Assembly: GCA_963720565.1 (NCBI GenBank)
Contig: CAVRFW010000009.1
Coordinates: forward strand, 64,001-128,000
Origin: Candidatus Bathyarchaeota archaeon
GTDB lineage: Archaea > Thermoproteota > Bathyarchaeia > Bathyarchaeales > Bathycorpusculaceae
Reading direction: 5' to 3'
Length of the DNA: 64,000 nt
Shown here: piece after piece, positions 25,406-35,196 of the stretch
How the letters are laid out: the number at the start of each line of letters is the position of its first letter
How positions within the stretch are numbered: the stretch's first letter is position 1
Notes under the pieces: model-generated
Told to the model about the DNA's origin: nothing
Databases searched by the model: none
Seen by the model: only the letters and a program-made list of their open reading frames with translations
Program-made: the position numbers and the translations under genes

Positions 25406-26650
25406 TTATGCTATAAACCATAATGCCAAACCAGTGAATACTGGTATTAGGATGTTATCGTTTACTGGCAAAGGCAACCATTCGACGGTCATTGCAACCG
25501 CAGCGCCAATTAGAGCCCAAAATGGAGATATGTAGACTGACCCCGCCAAAAAGGCAAAAAAGAAACCAGCTAGCGACCCCTCCAGAGTTTTGCCTTTGTT
25601 AAACGGTAGAGGTGTTCTAGAAATGAGTCCTCCGAAAATTGATGCTGTGCTATCGCCTAGAGCAAATATGGCAATGGCTGCGCTACTTGCGGGAGCGGGA
25701 AACAACAATAATGCTGCAAGTATGCCTATTGCAAAGTATATTGGTGCAGCTGCAAAATCGTACATTTCTGATTGAGAAGCTGCACGACGTGTTATAGCTG
25801 AAATAACCGGCAGATTCTTCCCGTCTAACCTTGACAATTCGGAAACAGCATAAAGCGTTATCACTCCGAAAATCAGCAAAGCAACAATTGGCAGACCGAT
25901 AAGGCTGGAGATTAATGGCACAAAGAATCCTGAAGCGTGAATTGCCTCCCTAACGAAATCATTTCTAGAAAGAACTGGTTTCTTCTTCGGTTCTCCTGTA
26001 ATGACCGGCAGGATTTTGGAGAGGTGCCCTGTAACTACATCGTCGGCTTTGATACGCAAAAGGAAGTCTGGGTTGTATCCTATCTTGAGGGTTTCGGGAA
26101 GAAAAATTGAAGCGTTGTTGCGATCATCAGCCACAACTGCGCAGTCAGATGGACTCAGCCCTTCAGCACTTATAGCTTGAGAAAAAACCCGGAGTTTTCC
26201 GTTCGTTTCTATGACATCACCCCAGATTTCACCAGTCAATGTCCCGCTGTTTGCACCCACTTCAAACCCAAACCCGCTGTCTGCCCCGACTGTGTTGGCT
26301 AGTCTTTTGACAAGGGCATCCGGTAATCCTGAGCTTATTAGCGCAGTTTTGCAGCCTACTGCTCTAAGCTGGTTAAAAACTTCTCTGACATGTGGCATTA
26401 GGGGAATTCTATCAGCAATCTGCTCAAGGAATTCGATTTTCGAATCTCGTAAACACATGAAACTGCGTTTTAATGCCACTTTCAGTGTGATGGCGCCTAC
26501 CTGATAAAGAAACCCCGCAAAAACTATCTTCATCAGTCTTGAAATACCCAAGCTTTTGCCCGCTTCAAAGAAGAATCGATTTTTCGAAATCAGCACTCCC
26601 TCAACATCGAAGACTACAAACAACGGTTTTCTGGTTTTTGCCATCTGCAC
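25406..26650 (-). CDS. Fusion of SerB-like HAD phosphatase and dolichol/phytol kinase (CTP_transf_1) domain
   Basis: VFDVEGVL, LISSG, K, ADDRNN in the N-half; REAIH, GDSTASIFG, KGKTLEGSLAG, DNILIP in the TM C-half. Confidence 0.8.
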   Translation of the reverse strand: MQMAKTRKPLFVVFDVEGVLISKNRFFFEAGKSLGISRLMKIVFAGFLYQVGAITLKVALKRSFMCLRDSKIEFLEQIADRIPLMPHVREVFNQLRAVGCKTALISSGLPDALVKRLANTVGADSGFGFEVGANSGTLTGEIWGDVIETNGKLRVFSQAISAEGLSPSDCAVVADDRNNASIFLPETLKIGYNPDFLLRIKADDVVTGHLSKILPVITGEPKKKPVLSRNDFVREAIHASGFFVPLISSLIGLPIVALLIFGVITLYAVSELSRLDGKNLPVISAITRRAASQSEMYDFAAAPIYFAIGILAALLLFPAPASSAAIAIFALGDSTASIFGGLISRTPLPFNKGKTLEGSLAGFFFAFLAGSVYISPFWALIGAAVAMTVEWLPLPVNDNILIPVFTGLALWFIA

Positions 26651-26794
26651 GTGTTTTTCACATCTGCTGAACTGTACAGCTTAATTGCAAGGGGCTTAAA
26701 TTTGTTTTACAGTTAGAATGGATTGCGATCCATTGGGCAACCCGTGCTGCTAAGATGTTTGACTGCAAATAGTGCTTCCTTTTATCTGTTCAAT

Positions 26795-28126
26795 TTAGAG
26801 GGTTTCAGTTGTTTGTTTTAGGGGGCATCCTGCTCCGCATGTGTTTAGGGTTGGGCATTCGTGGCATTTTTCTGGCGCGTATTTTCTTTGGCGAATTTTT
26901 TGGCAGGTTGGGTGTTGCCAGATGGTTTGCCAGTCATCCGTTAGTATGTTTCCCAGCGGGGCTATATTGTAGCTTTGACAGGGGATAACTGTGCCGTCGG
27001 GTTCGGTTGCCATGTTAATTCTGCAGGCGCTACAGGTTTTTAGTCCCAATTCGAGTTCCAGAGGATTAAGTTCGCAGTATTGGGTTGGCGTGTACCAGGT
27101 GAACTCCATGCCCAAATGTCGCGCTTTGGTGGTTATGCGTGTTAGGATGGGTTCTAATGTGGACTTCGTTTAGTGCGAAGGTTTTAGCTACTTCGGGTGC
27201 CTTTCCTGAATAGATTAGGCTGTTGCAGGCGAATTGTTTGAGTCCTAGACCATGAAGGAAATCTATTGTTTGTTCAATGTCTTCCACGTTGTATTGGTTT
27301 AGAGTGGTGTTGCTGATTGTGTAGATTGGCGTTTCGATTGCGTTTTTAAGCCTTGTATGGTTTCTTGCCAAGCTGCCCGGAGCGTCGGTTATTTTGTCGT
27401 GGATCTGAGGATTGTGGGATTCGACGGTTATTTGAATGTGGTCTAAGCCTGCGTCTATCAGGGATTGGAGGTAGGTTTTGTCTTTGAGCTTTCGTCCGTT
27501 GGTGACTAATCCGCTGACAAGTTCCCTTTTCTGGGCATGTTCAATTAGCACAGGTAGGTCCTCTCGTAAGGTGGGTTCTCCGCCTGTGAAAACCATGTGC
27601 GGGATGCCTATGTCGTGGAGTTTGTCAATGTAGCTATCCATTGTTGGGTATTAAGTTCGGCAGTTTGCTTGGGACCTCCGGCATAGCAGTGGATGCATCT
27701 GTTGTTGCATTTGTAGGTTAAGGCGAGGTCCATTCGGTAGGGTGCGCTTAGCTCTTTTTGGAAGGGTTCGATTTTTTGTACGTTTAGGTATGAGACGGGG
27801 CAAACGTCAGGGGTTTTTGCGAAGGTGTTTATGGTGTATAGGGTGTCTTGGTAGTCTTTGTTGGCAGTCTTCTGCGTCGACTTTGTAGTGTTTGAGGATG
27901 TTTCGGACAGTTTGTTGCTGGGTTTCGCCTCTGGTGAAGCCGTGGACGATTTCTGTTGCAGTCTTGTTTAGGAAGAGGACTCTCGACGCGTTAATTACTA
28001 GAACACTTGAACCGTCTCTTTCAAGTCGCAAGTGAAGGCGAAGTCCAGCGTATGTCACCTTCTTGGACCTTTAGATGATGAAGCACTTCTCTGAGGTTTG
28101 GGATGGAGTTTTTCTAGGATTTTCAT
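26795..28126 (-). CDS. Radical SAM/SPASM enzyme with N-terminal PqqD/RRE-like domain; several frameshifts
   Basis: Rebuilt across frames: ATG 28126; LHLRLERDGSSVLVINASRVLFLNKTATEI (PqqD-like); APYRMDLALTYKCNNRCIHCY (CxxxCxxC at 27686-27709); FTGGEPTLR; SPASM CSAC...PCQ...CHECPTLNTCGAGCP. Confidence 0.85.
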
Positions 28127-28210
28127 TCAGTGAGCACCTCCGCCAGCACATGCACAAGCGCAACTCACGCAGGCGCATGCGCAGGCGCATGAGTGGCAGG
28201 CGCAGACGCA
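28127..28210 (-). repeat. Low-complexity (TGC GCN)n repeat encoding the Cys-Ala tail
   Basis: Plus strand shows gcaggcgcatgcgcaggcgcatg-type repeats; third-position variation (TGC/TGT, GCC/GCA/GCT) fits protein-level selection. Confidence 0.8.
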
Positions 28211-29794
28211 CGATTGTTTGTTTATTGATTGGTTGCTTGGGGGAGATTGGAAGGGAATGAGTTGGTTTGCGAAGTCTTGGATGTTTTTGACCATGTTGTT
28301 AGCAGCTGATTGTATGTTCTAGGACTACGGTGTTTGCGAAATCCTGTCCTGGTAAAGTCGTTGGTTTGGTGGGAATCGGGGGTGTTGTTGTTGAGGGCGT
28401 GGTAGTTGAGGGAATCGCTGGCCCTGAGGGGCTGCGTGGAATGTTCCAGTACCACCACCAATCGGGTTTGGGAGTGATGACCGTTCCAGGTGGAAAGATT
28501 GTCTTTAAATTGGTCGTCGAATTTTTGGTCAGATAGGAGCCAATCTATGTTTTGATTTAAAGCGTCGCCTTTTAGCTCAGGGGTTTGCGCGTTGGTGACT
28601 TGTTTCCAAGCTGCATCGACTATGGATTTGTAGTATTTTGTTGTGTCTTCTCTTGAGTAACCGCGTAACCTTTGGTTTACAGTGGTCACCAATCCTTGGT
28701 ATGTGAGGGCTAAGTGCTTTTTCATTTAGAGTTCCGTCGGGTTTTACAGCTGATAGGTAGTCAATTTCGTAGTATCGAGGTTGGGTAGGTGTTTCTGCAG
28801 TAAGTTTTTGTGTTTTCTCCAGTTTCAGCAGGGGTTCAGTTTGTGTTACCGTGACTAGGCGTTTTAGGATTAGGCCGTAAAGGATCATGGTTAGGACGCG
28901 TATGGGTTTTTGGCCCAGAACTAAGCCGGCTTCCACCGCAGTTAGGGTGCGGTTGGCTCCTAGGGCTTCAACGGATATTTGGGGTTTGGTGTAGGTTGCT
29001 TTGGATAATGCGATGAATACTGCTACAATTACAGCTGCGACTACCACAAAGGCGCCTATCCCAAACAATAGTTCGATTAAGTCGAGTATACCTCCGCCAT
29101 TTTGAGGCGGAGTTGGGCTAGGTGCGGGTGAGACATAGGTTTCTGGAAATGAGACACCTGCGGCAAAGGTTTGTTCAGCTTGCCAAGTGGGTCTTTCCCA
29201 GTAAACAGCCGTTCTATTATCCTCAGTTAAGAATACGTTGTCAAAGGGCAAGTTTGAGGGATATAATACTTCGGTTGTTTGGACTCCAAAGGGCAGAATT
29301 ATTTGCAGACGCAGGTCTTCAGTTCCTATTGAGCTTGCGAATGTGCTTGGGAAGAACTGCATACCCACATTTCCAGGGTTTGTTTCATCCGAGAAAACCA
29401 TGTTTGGTACCGTTGCGTATGCAAGGAAACTGATTGGTTGGTTGAGAATTATGGGTTTTTTTAGTGTAATGTCGATGCCAATTGGGTATAGAAGAGCGTT
29501 CTCGTATTCCAGAGAGTCTCCAGCCGCAGTCTTCTACAGCTTGGATTTGGTAGCCTGCTTTGGGCATGCCTAGTGTGAAAATGCCTTGGGGTGATCCTGA
29601 AAGGTATTGAAAAGTGATGTTATAGAAGATGTTTAGGCTGACCAGTCGTGGTTGATTTCGACTCTTACCCACTCTTGGGTTACGCTGTAGGTGACGCCTT
29701 GAGCCGAAGCGAAAAAGGAAAACGAGAAACTTGCTAAGAGACACAAAAGAGCCACTAACAGGATGGTGTACGTGTGTCTCTTAGGCTTTACCAT
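28127..29794 (-). CDS. Type I membrane protein (DUF2207-like extracellular domain) with cytoplasmic 10-Cys C-terminal tail; about 5 frameshifts
   Basis: Rebuilt: signal peptide MVKPKRHTYTILLVALLCLLASFSFSFFASAQ, YSVTQEWVRVEINHD, SPAPSPTPP linker, TM, LTAVEAGLVLG, WWWYW, P/T-rich stretch, tail SCVCACHSCACACACVSCACACAGGGAH-stop at 28127. Confidence 0.75.
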
Positions 29795-30136
29795 GTGGGC
29801 TCCTCGGTTAACTCGAATTTGTTTCCGCAGTAGTCACAGGTCACGAATGGTTTTCCATCAACTATGACAGTCTTTGTTGGGTCAACGATAGCACTACAGT
29901 TTGGGACAGTGAATTTTATTTATTTTAAGCGGACCAGTGACAGTCAGGGTCTGTTTGATTTCTATGGGTTTCTTTTCGCGGGTCAAAAAAATCATTCCAC
30001 CAGCAACTGCCAAGAAGGCTAAACCTATTAGGAAATATGTGAATCCGAGGTTTGCTGAAATCATAAAGACTAACCCTAAGAAAACCAGAACTACTGCAAC
30101 TATGTAAACAAGAATTTTGCCTGCGCCTTTTACCAT
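29788..30136 (-). CDS. Small 2-TM protein with C-terminal zinc ribbon; frameshift near 29900
   Basis: ORF 29894..30136 continues after a shift as CPNCSAIVD...VTCDYCGNKFELTEEPTW-stop; the stop overlaps ATG 29794 (ATGGTAA). Confidence 0.75.
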
Positions 30137-30407
30137 ACCATTTCACACTTCAGAATAGCTATTTAGCTGATTGTTAGCTATAACACTTTTCCAAAAACGA
30201 AATGTCAGAAGCTTACTTCAATTTGCTTATTGCATAGCGGTCCGTTGGGGCTGGGTGCTTCTTGCAGGATAGCATATTTCGATTTAGAAGAAAGAATCGC
30301 GGGTTTTGCGGCAGATGGTTAAGAAGAAACTGCTCGAAATCCACTTCCTTACAAAAACCTCTTTCTAAAGCATATACAGAACAAGAGTTGGTACGCGCAG
30401 ACTGTAG

Positions 30408-31917: not shown

Positions 31918-33822
31918 ATGCCCTATATGCTGAATAGGTTTGGGAAAGAATCTTTTCTTAGGGCTTTGGGTAGATACTGGTTTTTAGTAGCTTTGTCGTC
32001 CCTGGTCTTGGCATCGTTTGTTTCAACTCCTCTCGCTCTTCTATCGGCGTTTGCCTTCACATTTCTTGTTCCAGGCTTAGTTTTCCATCGTTTTTTCAAA
32101 ATGGAAACCTGCCAGTTGTTAGCCTTCATTCCGACTTTCAGCGTATTGGTGTCAACTCAGCTGGTTTACTACACTTCTCTTCTTTTTGGATATTCGTCGG
32201 CAACAATAGCGGGTACATTTGTTGTATGGCTCCTGTTCTATGGTGTAGTCGAATGGCGAAAGCCGGCGACTATTTCATTGAGAAGTTTTATTAGAACTGC
32301 CAAGCGCAACAGAGCAATTCTGGTAATTCTTGTTTTGACGTTTGCTCTGTCTTTTGCGGTTCTTTACAGAAGCGTCTGGTTTGAAAGCGATAACGGTATT
32401 GTCTTGACAGGTTCAAACTGGCAAGATACACCCCTTCACTACGAGATTATTGAAAGCATAAACAGTGGCAATTTCCCGCCGCAAATGCCTTACTACTCTG
32501 GGGAAAAGATGACATATCATTATTTCGTGGACTTTCACACGGCAATTCTTGAGAAGGTTTATGGATACCTGCCGCAGTTGTTGCCATTCCTGAACGCAGT
32601 TTTCATTGCGGTTTTTGCCTTAGCCATCTATTCTCTTGCAAGACCAAATGGTAAACGAGCAGCTGCGTTTTCAACCATTATAGCCACATTCGGATGGGGT
32701 TTCAGCTATTTCGGTTTCTTCTCGGCACTTGCTAATGGCACATTTAATCCTGCACAGAATTATGCCTACCAATACAATGGCTTGTTTGGTTTGCCGCCAA
32801 TATTTGACAATCTGCTGCAGCAGAGGCCACTTCTGATAGGTTTGCCTGCTTTTGTATTGGTTCTCGCTCTACTGCGAAATATGGATAACAAACAAGGAGT
32901 AATCTTGGCGGGTATTATGACTGGTTTTGTTTTTCCATTCCACGCTGTGTCGTTCATTTGCTGCTACCTTGCTTATTTTGCCTTTTTGTTGCTAAACATT
33001 AGGAGTTTCAAAACTCATTACTTTTGCTTTCTAATATCTGCTGTCGTGGCGTTGCCTTTCCTTTTTTCTGGTAGTGTTTCTGTACCTCTAGTTATAGCAC
33101 CTCTATGGTACATACTCTTCATGAAGGAAAATCCGATCTTGTTTTACTTTCTTAACCTTGGTGTTCCCTTCATTGTTTCTCTGGTTTTCATAAAGAAAGT
33201 TGACGGGGTCTTTCTGAAGCTTGTCTGCCTTTTTCTATTTCTGATTCCGAACCTGGTTTCTATCACGCCTAATCCATGGGACATGTACAAATTCTTTATT
33301 TTCGCTTGGATTCCACTTGCGGTTCTGAGCGGTGCTGCCCTATCCAAAATCAAGAAAAGTGTGGCGTTTGTGCTGCTTTTGCTTTCCATTCTAACTTCGG
33401 CGAATGTCATACTCTACAATCTCGGAACTAACTATACGGCAGCCAACTGGAATGAATACGAGTTAGGAATGTGGGTTAGAGAAAACACTCCAGAACGTTC
33501 TGTATTCTTAACTTATTACTCAATTCACTGTCCTCCAGTCATGATTGGAGGGCGCTTAACGGTTGCCTCATACGTTAACTGGGCGTACGGTCACGGCGTG
33601 CCCTGGGATGATATAAAAGCACGATGCGATGATATCGATTCTGCATACACTGGAAATTCAGACAATTTGATGCAGATTGTCAATGCATACAACGTAACTT
33701 ACATCTATGTTGGCGCGGATGAACTTCGCAATTTTCCTGGATGTGCAGAGCGATTTAACGTGGTAGAGTGGCTGCGACCAGTTTACAACGGAAGCTTGCG
33801 CATATACGAAGTAGTTCTCTAA
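31918..33822 (+). CDS. GT-C-like polytopic membrane protein
   Basis: WQDTPLHY...NFPPQMPYYSG...YHYFVDF, WVRENTPERSVFL, YNVTYIYVG. Confidence 0.65.
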   Translation: MPYMLNRFGKESFLRALGRYWFLVALSSLVLASFVSTPLALLSAFAFTFLVPGLVFHRFFKMETCQLLAFIPTFSVLVSTQLVYYTSLLFGYSSATIAGTFVVWLLFYGVVEWRKPATISLRSFIRTAKRNRAILVILVLTFALSFAVLYRSVWFESDNGIVLTGSNWQDTPLHYEIIESINSGNFPPQMPYYSGEKMTYHYFVDFHTAILEKVYGYLPQLLPFLNAVFIAVFALAIYSLARPNGKRAAAFSTIIATFGWGFSYFGFFSALANGTFNPAQNYAYQYNGLFGLPPIFDNLLQQRPLLIGLPAFVLVLALLRNMDNKQGVILAGIMTGFVFPFHAVSFICCYLAYFAFLLLNIRSFKTHYFCFLISAVVALPFLFSGSVSVPLVIAPLWYILFMKENPILFYFLNLGVPFIVSLVFIKKVDGVFLKLVCLFLFLIPNLVSITPNPWDMYKFFIFAWIPLAVLSGAALSKIKKSVAFVLLLLSILTSANVILYNLGTNYTAANWNEYELGMWVRENTPERSVFLTYYSIHCPPVMIGGRLTVASYVNWAYGHGVPWDDIKARCDDIDSAYTGNSDNLMQIVNAYNVTYIYVGADELRNFPGCAERFNVVEWLRPVYNGSLRIYEVVL

Positions 33823-33903
33823 CAAATGTTGCAAGTTCAACCTTAGGCTGGGTTTGAAGGGAATGCATGTAAGAAAACTTTTATTCACACGGTTCCTGAA
33901 CTA

Positions 33904-35196
33904 TTGATTCAACGGGAGGAGCAGAAAATTAACTTCTCGGTTGAGAAGCGCGAAGTCATCGGTGTAGTTGCAGTGCTGTCGATTTCGTTTTTGGTTAGGC
34001 TTCTCTTGTTTCCGTTGCCAGGATACAAACTGGATTCGACTACTTATCAGGCATGGTTCCAGACTGCAGCTAACGTTGGATTAAGAACTTTCTATAACCC
34101 CCCGAACTGGTGTGATTATCCGCCTCTGAATATCTATTTTTTCTGGGGTTTCGGGTCATTAGCGAAAACGCTTTCACTTTTCGGAACACCCGCAATGGGC
34201 TATCTTGTCAAGCTGGTTCCTAACCTGTTTGACGCTGCAACTGCGCTGATGATTTTTGTTTTTTCTAGAAAGCGTTTAGACTTCAAAATGGCGCTTTTGG
34301 CTACCGCCGCCTACTCGTTTAACCCTGCAGTTATCTTGAATGCAGCAGTGTGGGGTCAATACGACGCGATTTACACTTTCTTCCTTGTTCTATCTGTCAT
34401 GCTGGGATTGGCTTCAAAGCCTGAGCTTTGCGCTATTTCTTTCACGCTTAGCATTCTTACTAAACCGCAAGGCATAGCCTTAGCTCCTCTAATCGCCTTT
34501 CTGATTCTCAGAAAATATCGGCTACAATGGCGTCGTCTTCTGTCTTCACTATTCAGCGCGGTAGTTACCGTTTTCCTGGTAATAGTTCCTTTTGAGTGGA
34601 GCAACCCACTTACTTTCCTGACCAACATATACTTCGGAGCATATAGCGGCTACGCTGTTACATCCGTGAACGCGTTCAACATATGGGGACTAGTTGGGTT
34701 CTGGTTGCCTGACACAAACTACTATGTGATAGGATGGGTTCTTTTCGCAATCGTGGCTATCTTTACTTTGTATGTTCTGCATAGGCGGTTTGAGGTTTCA
34801 GGTGAAGTGCTCGTTCTTTTTTCAGCTTTCCTTCTTCTTTTCAGTTTCTTCATGCTTCCAACAAGAATTCATGAAAGGTATCTGTTTCCAACGATGAGCT
34901 TTCTGGCTTTGTTGTTTCCACTCCTAAAAAAGGCGCGCCCCATTTACTTGGTCTTAACTGGGACCTGTTTTGTCAATCAAGCATATGTTCTCTATTGGCT
35001 TAATGTTTACACAGACGCTGGTTACAACTACAGCCCCAATCTCACAGGCGACCCCGTAGCTATCGCAGTAAGCTTGATTAATTTAGTAGTGTTCCTTTAC
35101 GCTTTGACACTGATTCAGGCTGAGCTTAAAGGTGGATTAGGTATCCGAACTCGACCTGTTACGGCAGTACAGAACAAAACGAAGGAGGCTGGCTAA
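33904..35196 (+). CDS. GT-C mannosyltransferase-like protein (GT87/PIG-M/DUF2029-like)
   Basis: DYPPL, FNPAVILNAAVWGQYD, KPQG, NAFNIW, PTRIHERYLFP. Confidence 0.75.
   Translation: MIQREEQKINFSVEKREVIGVVAVLSISFLVRLLLFPLPGYKLDSTTYQAWFQTAANVGLRTFYNPPNWCDYPPLNIYFFWGFGSLAKTLSLFGTPAMGYLVKLVPNLFDAATALMIFVFSRKRLDFKMALLATAAYSFNPAVILNAAVWGQYDAIYTFFLVLSVMLGLASKPELCAISFTLSILTKPQGIALAPLIAFLILRKYRLQWRRLLSSLFSAVVTVFLVIVPFEWSNPLTFLTNIYFGAYSGYAVTSVNAFNIWGLVGFWLPDTNYYVIGWVLFAIVAIFTLYVLHRRFEVSGEVLVLFSAFLLLFSFFMLPTRIHERYLFPTMSFLALLFPLLKKARPIYLVLTGTCFVNQAYVLYWLNVYTDAGYNYSPNLTGDPVAIAVSLINLVVFLYALTLIQAELKGGLGIRTRPVTAVQNKTKEAG

Follow-up and report, generated by a model that had tools for sequence, protein, structure and literature searches.

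Can a radical S-adenosylmethionine (SAM) enzyme act on the cytoplasmic tail of a membrane protein? The question is raised by three genes on the minus strand of a Candidatus Bathyarchaeota contig (CAVRFW010000009.1), at positions 26795..30136 of the 64,000-nucleotide stretch analysed here (the window, to whose full length all coordinates refer). They code for a small zinc-ribbon membrane protein, a larger membrane protein ending in alternating Cys and Ala, and a radical SAM/SPASM enzyme with an N-terminal recognition element (RRE) of the kind that serves peptides made on ribosomes and modified after translation (RiPPs). An earlier note on this DNA had taken the cassette for a modification system in which the enzyme acts on the neighbouring tail, either in place or ahead of its removal. 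Our analysis supports this interpretation in part: judging from sequence, the enzyme probably modifies the Cys tail in place.

Layout of the cassette

Six-frame translation combined with junction checks confirmed that the three genes are coupled and that they are split across frames. Gene 1 lies upstream, followed by genes 2 and 3:

29788..30136, minus strand: gene 1, about 115 amino acids, with two N-terminal hydrophobic helices, a C-terminal CxxC...CxxC zinc ribbon and an EEPxW end.
28127..29794, minus strand: gene 2, a type I membrane protein of about 555 amino acids, distantly related to DUF2207/TIGR04222.
26795..28126, minus strand: gene 3, an RRE-radical SAM/SPASM enzyme of about 442 amino acids.

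Both junctions are as the earlier note had read them. The end of gene 1 and the start of gene 2 share the seven bases ATGGTAA (29794-29788), and the stop of gene 2 abuts the start of gene 3 in TGAATG (28129-28124), without overlap. Protein analyses were run on intact relatives of the window genes. By its named relatives the genome falls within Bathyarchaeia.

Linkage of tail and enzyme

The cassette is more than a chance arrangement, because all 18 strong relatives retrieved by the middle part of gene 2, which lacks the tail, have the same tail and an enzyme gene directly behind it. Among 61 relatives examined as genomes, the 18 with a strong gene 2 all had the enzyme, and in one additional genome with the enzyme the tail lies next to a stretch of N. 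The collection was extended to 98 loci, a few of them duplicates. Tail patterns had been used to find 80 of these, which accounts for the presence of the tail in them, though not for that of the neighbour. The enzyme gene lies directly downstream in 93 of the 98 and within the locus in 95; in the remaining three, the genome encodes an enzyme of the same clade at another site (E 1e-164 to 1e-182). Gene 1 is present in 75 of these loci. Gene 2 was found in 22 of 251 Chloroflexota genomes, and the enzyme (E<1e-137) in the same 22. Of 151 Asgard genomes, 56 have gene 2, all of them together with the enzyme, which occurs in 64. In metagenomes, the bacterial tail matched 122 stretches, 80 of which were examined; 70 of these had at least 400 bases downstream, and in this tail-only pull the enzyme came next in 58 of the 70 and within 3 kb in 67.

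The earlier note had held that its proposal would fall if Cys tails usually occurred apart from the radical SAM gene. We found the opposite, near-strict linkage in all samples. The linkage is seen in three distant groups, with flanking genes that vary freely, though the sampled kin are not independent; likewise, gene trees of the tail protein and the enzyme have 25 of 27 strong splits in common, a weak agreement given that kin share their history. The cassette occurs in 37% of the sampled Asgard genomes, about a third of the sampled close relatives and 9% of the sampled Chloroflexota. A gene-2 profile search returned 980 clusters at 50% identity, and of the 110 proteins of at least 500 residues listed, 104 have the tail at their end (by pattern), 3 more contain it and 3 are without. 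The cassette belongs to anaerobes, both archaeal and bacterial; named carriers fall in Bathyarchaeia, Chloroflexota, Promethearchaeota, Thermococci, Theionarchaea, Korarchaeota, Thermoplasmata, Bacillota and Deltaproteobacteria. Plasmids gave no match, and viral contigs none to either tail pattern; no RNA dataset carrying the cassette was listed among sequencing runs.

A second tail-enzyme pair

A sister form of the gene-2 body ends in CHSA/CHDA repeats and is paired with an RRE-radical SAM/SPASM subclade of its own. Asgard genomes with gene 2 divide into 31 with the main enzyme (E<1e-150) and 25 with the sister enzyme (E 1e-89 to 1e-116). The 23 tails read in the main group are all of the form (CA)n-GGGR, and the 8 read in the sister group are all CHSA/CHDA. 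Among indirect signs that the enzyme reads the tail, this agreement of tail type with enzyme group is the strongest. One genome, G079, has both tail-enzyme pairs, at separate loci.

The sister system was seen at L160/L183 (G079), L039 (G055), L363-L368, L372 and L373. In G079 and G055 it adjoins a coiled-coil protein of about 400 amino acids; in Asgard genomes, where the sister enzyme is usually divergently placed, it often adjoins conserved proteins of about 135 and 250 amino acids.

The enzyme

The features of gene 3 are as follows:

27810..28060 (approximate limits), minus strand: RRE/PqqD-like domain, from PF05402 (E 2.5e-4) and the model.
27686..27709, minus strand: radical SAM cluster motif CxxxCxxC, without variation in 64 of 64 enzymes.
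26825..27085, minus strand: auxiliary-cluster Cys, comprising an upstream Cys, C-x12-G-x4-C and C-x2-C-x5-C-x3-C; the last canonical Cys is absent.

The PqqD-like N-terminus proposed earlier is borne out. In the gene 3 fragments PF05402 reaches 21.8 bits, just below its cut-off of 23.4, and it exceeds the cut-off in the homologues L104, L183 and L187. In the enzyme model (predicted local distance difference test score, pLDDT, of 86) the radical SAM barrel is preceded by three strands and three helices. The alignment covers residues 28-435 with SkfB and 18-441 with SuiB, RRE included. Radical_SAM (E 3.5e-16) and SPASM (PF13186; E 2.6e-11, 44 bits) are both matched, the CxxxCxxC motif was confirmed and the SAM-binding motif GGEP is present. 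What the earlier note had called a full SPASM motif holds for six of the seven canonical Cys of CX9-15GX4C-gap-CX2CX5CX3C-gap-C, which are invariant in 64 of 64 enzymes; the last is missing in the window enzyme, as in 82 of 167 homologues, and is found in the other 85. An extra upstream Cys occurs in 160 of the 167 and in the window enzyme. A three-Cys AuxI cluster with an open site is found in CteB, PapB and CrpC, and fully ligated auxiliary clusters in anSME and SuiB (PMC6231123, PMC10177961, PMC13692751). SkfB has an extra Cys yet an open site (PMC6231123), and the Cys pattern of our enzyme accordingly does not decide its chemistry.

Among solved folds the nearest are the peptide maturases SkfB and SuiB; SkfB ranks first by both profile (E 3e-31) and fold (Z 25.9). 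When two full-length enzymes were compared with NCBIfam, whose families include PqqE, NirJ, AhbC/D, SkfB, SCIFF, SbtM and ACGX, none of the best 25 reached its cut-off, the best scoring 146 bits against 500 (TIGR04055). PADLOC returned no defence-system match, only generic radical-SAM-core matches of gene 3 to viperin models and nothing for genes 1 and 2.

The membrane protein and its tail

Gene 2 can be divided as follows:

29699..29794, minus strand: signal-peptide-like N-terminus, from hydropathy; model helix 4-29.
29140..29698 (approximate limits), minus strand: outer beta-sandwich with the ribophorin-I / M1-aminopeptidase N-terminal fold, from the model of the G002 copy.
29000..29071, minus strand: single transmembrane helix, from model and hydropathy.
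28250..28355, minus strand: conserved helix PGxxFAN..., between Pro-rich and Ser/Gly linkers, from column conservation.
28127..28210, minus strand: (Cys-Ala)n-GGG tail with 10 Cys, the proposed modified core, from reading of the sequence.

The 10-Cys tail reported earlier is thus present, with GGG after it. Model and hydropathy together support, as a prediction, the type I topology with a cytoplasmic tail that had been assigned to the protein. The model was built from 15 sequences and its pLDDT is below 50 from residue 398; fold searches used residues 32-218 only. In the G002 model the outer domain best matches a yeast oligosaccharyltransferase chain, 6c26_1 (Z 16.6, root-mean-square deviation 2.7, 178 residues), followed by M1 aminopeptidase domains (Z 12-14). 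Gene 2 thus shares outer domain fold and type I topology with ribophorin I / Ost1, from which it differs in having one such domain and only 10-13% identity; the fold is common to M1 aminopeptidases and others, and implies no function. At the family level, TIGR04222 is matched in two members at 24 and 22.8 bits (E 2.6e-5 and 5.9e-5), below its 43-bit cut-off, and in none of ten others scanned. DUF2207 (PF09972 / PF20990) gave no match in Bathyarchaeia copies, sub-threshold matches in L039, L110 and L115, and in the sister-type L160 a PF09972 match just above cut-off. Some NCBI records of gene-2 relatives bear the DUF2207 name, and the Atlas neighbours are DUF2207. These weak matches would place gene 2 at the edge of a DUF2207/TIGR04222 superfamily.

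At the end of the cytoplasmic half, a Pro-rich linker of low conservation is followed by the conserved helix, which a Ser/Gly linker separates from the tail. Column conservation is 0.58-0.62 in the helix against 0.33 in the linker before it, which makes the helix a candidate for a leader-like recognition segment. An 18-residue block of the tail, in 63 of 64 loci, is encoded by 63 distinct DNA versions that yield only 7 protein versions; the block was chosen by pattern and its invariance is partly by construction. Because so many DNA versions encode so few protein versions, the sequences argue that the tail is selected as a protein, and a DNA microsatellite artefact is ruled out by the full mixing of synonymous codons. 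The number of tail Cys ranges from 3 to 10, with the final CACAxGG retained, and the main tail type has none of the Asp/Glu/Thr acceptors of the ranthipeptide kind. In the tail-only metagenome pull the tail sat on a gene-2 body in 64 of 65 contigs, an arrangement other than the short precursor with N-terminal leader that defines sactipeptides and ranthipeptides.

As for gene 1, its intact G002 copy matches Zn_ribbon_3 (E 2e-6). Its terminal Trp was considered as a by-product of the ATGGTAA overlap and this was rejected, the Trp being kept in L104 and L221, where the genes do not overlap.

Frame breaks in the window copy

Compared with G002, a congener, and with L040, the window copy carries about 13 indel events in 3.3 kb. 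Gene 1 is broken near 29906 by one base that is extra relative to intact relatives. Gene 2 is broken near 29640, 29524, 28711, 28503 and 28319, and has a self-compensating cluster at 29485-29499; gene 3 is broken near 28093, 28053, 27867, 27631 and 27164, with a compensating pair at 27346/27370. We regard these indels as probably consensus errors of the assembly. The alternative, a decaying pseudo-operon in place of a mis-assembled intact one, draws on the density of the breaks, which is far above that of control genes: a frame change appeared in 9 of 112 gene comparisons with G002/L040 (tblastn), three of them from this operon (an indel count from pairwise alignments of control genes was swamped by alignment noise and discarded). 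Gene 3 of G002 is broken too, and the cassette is missing from two congeners that are 89% and 96% complete. Against decay, there are no in-frame stops across 1,099 aligned codons, and 101 of 103 conserved enzyme positions are retained. The window branch has no excess of amino-acid changes (26 nonsynonymous to 60 synonymous, against 58 to 113 for G002), and dN/dS relative to G002 is about 0.1. Insertions form the majority of the indels, and at least eight indels are missing in relatives' contigs from four studies, mostly about 95% identical. Decay is thus unlikely.

Does the enzyme modify the tail?

We infer binding, catalysis and product of the tail-enzyme pair as follows. The gene 2 product would be the substrate and the gene 3 product its dedicated maturase. 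The cytoplasmic end of gene 2 would form a RiPP-precursor-like module, made up of the leader-like helix, the flexible Ser/Gly linker and the (Cys-Ala)n-GGG core. This end would be bound by the cytosolic RRE-radical SAM/SPASM enzyme, which would oxidatively modify the tail Cys, and the tail would remain on the protein.

Several points weigh against this scheme. Co-occurrence indicates a shared pathway, not which component acts on which. An RRE need not bind a leader, as illustrated by SuiA, which binds SuiB outside the RRE (PMC6231123). The tails of TIGR04222 proteins are predicted to be periplasmic, on the opposite side of the membrane (PMC12452194), and the call that gene 2 has no further membrane segment rests on hydropathy, because the cytoplasmic half of the protein (from residue 398) is modelled with low confidence. 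The linkage has gaps as well. G055, a genome 67% complete and the one discordant case among the 61 relatives, has a CHSA tail and no enzyme better than E 3e-42. Gene 2 was initially missing in 8 of the 64 Asgard enzyme genomes; two of these had an N-terminal fragment and six were blank, the six being incomplete metagenome-assembled genomes followed up without a positive control. Finally, 3 of the 70 metagenome tails are without enzyme in the available DNA, one of them with the full 3 kb. A complex prediction for the enzyme with the last 89 gene-2 residues scored 0.01, which gives no verdict and was counted neither way.

One could envision instead that the tail is an unmodified thiolate array for metal or Fe-S clusters, or a sulfur or cluster donor, and that the enzyme acts on another target, be it another part of the gene-2 protein, the gene 1 product, a lipid or a small molecule. 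In a strand or hairpin, alternating Cys would bring every thiol to the same face; the missing final SPASM Cys in 82 of 167 enzymes may leave an open iron site; and archaeal lipids are the target of Hbs, a related SPASM enzyme that has an N-terminal extension (10.1101/2023.10.20.563219). This is improbable nonetheless: the N-terminal domain of our enzyme resembles PqqD/RRE, a peptide-binding module, the tail type changes with the enzyme subclade, and the near-invariant Ala and GGG appear stricter than a metal site would usually need. Gene 2 is very unlikely to be the precursor of a RiPP, with a giant leader anchored in the membrane and a tail that is modified, later cut off, as the earlier note had allowed, and released as a peptide. 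The linker-core layout is precursor-like and some lineages have extra tailoring genes (15 of 45 loci have a class I methyltransferase nearby). Against this reading, no protease or exporter recurs in three or more of these 45 loci (as judged from sequences, some run against Pfam), and purifying selection conserves the 500-residue body, which has its own membrane partner.

If the tail is indeed modified in place, which chemistry would be involved? Our tentative choice, by analogy with SbtM and anSME, is a local oxidation of each Ala-Cys unit through a radical at the Cys C-beta, giving for instance a thiooxazole. It is slightly favoured over thioethers because of the variable Cys number, the small-residue-Cys unit, the want of Asp/Glu/Thr acceptors and the parallel with TIGR04222-MNIO; with 3 to 10 Cys, a per-residue reaction fits better than fixed rings. 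Thioether links of the sactionine type are a possible outcome, toward which the closeness of the enzyme to SkfB points. Other chemistry, such as epimerisation, seems unlikely. As to purpose, it is a rather doubtful suggestion, weakly inferred, that the system provides a metal-binding array tethered to the membrane, which would operate together with the zinc-ribbon partner. It is tempting to speculate further, on a picture that is somewhat unlikely to hold in its entirety, about a class of membrane-anchored RiPP-like modules with a receptor-like, ribophorin-I-type outer domain and up to ten modified Cys (thiooxazole or thioether), with at least two tail-enzyme pairs and with a dead paralogue and a methyltransferase as accessories; these would be an anaerobic counterpart of TIGR04222-MNIO, common in Asgard archaea, Bathyarchaeia and Chloroflexota.

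Relation to known systems

One close likeness is to CrpC (TIGR04463) of Methanococcus voltae, an archaeal RRE-radical SAM/SPASM enzyme. Its gene neighbours that of CrpA, a large protein whose C-terminal region is rich in Cys and on which CrpC installs thioether links; CrpC and QhpD both modify neighbouring Cys-rich proteins (PMC13692751). CrpA differs in its size of 29 kDa, its 17-residue repeat and its CxxQ/D motifs, and PMC13692751 makes no mention of a membrane. CrpC has a three-Cys AuxI; in our enzyme a fourth candidate ligand is conserved upstream. The 25 best NCBIfam matches of our enzyme do not include TIGR04463, and a term search of supplement files of that paper gave no Bathyarchaeia or DUF2207 entry.

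A second parallel is offered by Cys-tailed TIGR04222 membrane proteins, proposed substrates of MNIO (DUF692) enzymes (PMC12452194), which likewise combine a membrane protein, an unstructured Ser/Gly-rich Cys tail at the C-terminus and a neighbouring oxidative enzyme. They are mostly from Actinomycetota, rely on MNIO instead of radical SAM chemistry and have variable tails predicted to be periplasmic; their linkage is loose, a third of genomes being without MNIO, in contrast to the near-strict linkage and near-invariant tail found here (PMC12452194). SkfB, CteB, PapB and QhpD share the RRE, radical SAM and SPASM/Twitch architecture (PMC6231123, PMC10177961, PMC13692751). The substrates of sactipeptide and ranthipeptide maturases and of QhpD are, in contrast, short peptides or, for QhpC, a small subunit, with an N-terminal leader. 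These maturases are 15-23% identical to gene 3, with no NCBIfam cut-off reached, and the Cys pattern of gene 3 appears to differ from that of CteB/PapB. SbtM, which converts Gly-Cys into a thiooxazole, and anSME are SPASM enzymes that oxidise Cys at C-beta and hence models for a per-residue reaction (PMC9204691). Their substrates are peptides or sulfatases, not membrane proteins (PMC9204691), and the similarity to SbtM is a weak one of the SPASM domain (TIGR04082 E 1e-5, against a cut-off of 350). Hbs, compared by description only, is AhbD-like with a COG4001 lipid-binding N-terminal domain; the N-terminus of gene 3 is PqqD-like, and the main text of the preprint is silent on Chloroflexota (10.1101/2023.10.20.563219).

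By analogy, we would expect the cassette to work like CrpC/CrpA or QhpD/QhpC, as a member of none of the named families tested. Our literature search found no description of it, with subscription journals and bioRxiv supplements outside its coverage, where an earlier mention may exist; a term search of PMC12710340 gave no hit. Radical SAM modification of full-size proteins is documented in few cases, QhpC and CrpA (PMC13692751), and that of a membrane-protein tail in none that we found in the literature. This widespread cassette, with its 980 clusters, is without a curated family. The near-invariant short candidate substrate, with the second tail-enzyme pair as a natural specificity control, makes the proposal directly testable; it could reveal new Cys chemistry and could give a function to one branch of DUF2207/TIGR04222.

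Accessory and neighbouring genes

A paralogue of the enzyme keeps the RRE and the barrel and has lost CxxxCxxC and the SPASM Cys. It is known from 40 distinct sequences (for example L187:1450-2601 and L182:1495-2640), mostly in Chloroflexota-type clusters and usually just behind the active enzyme gene, and is likely, from its sequence, to be a pseudoenzyme partner. In G268 it is present while neither active enzyme nor gene 2 was detected. The class I SAM-dependent methyltransferase lies near the cassette in 15 of 45 clustered loci (for example L194:12506-13270 and L129:730-1485); in some Asgard genomes it stands beside the enzyme gene with genes 1 and 2 elsewhere.

Some loci depart from the usual layout. 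In L214, L221, L224 and L267 an inserted related gene of about 180 amino acids, reminiscent of a REP-associated transposase, separates gene 2 from the enzyme. Gene 2 of L113 (4097-5740) has an extra zinc-finger-like insert (DUF7575) in its cytoplasmic half; L111 and L116-L119 have an insertion at the same site, and no gene 1 was detected nearby. In L277/L278 and L230 gene 2 occurs twice in tandem ahead of the enzyme, with both tails visible in L277 and the second copy seen only at its start in L230.

Downstream of the cassette in several Bathyarchaeia, and at 25406-26650 in the window, lies a HAD-domain protein fused to a membrane domain reminiscent of dolichol/phytol kinases. Upstream, beyond an aspartokinase-like gene, 31918-35196 codes for two large membrane proteins, one weakly similar to ALG6/ALG8 glycosyltransferases (E 2e-4). 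A tie of the cassette to glycosylation or to the HAD-domain gene was considered and rejected, since it shows in no more than 4 of 45 loci, all from Bathyarchaeia; across lineages, glycosylation genes show no recurring link to the cassette in these loci. Within 26000-30200 the cassette DNA is 84-90% identical to the G002 copy and the flanks 70-75%, apart from one 240-base stretch at 84%. Because the cassette is closer to G002 than its flanks are and two other congeners are without it, it may possibly have been exchanged recently between lineages.

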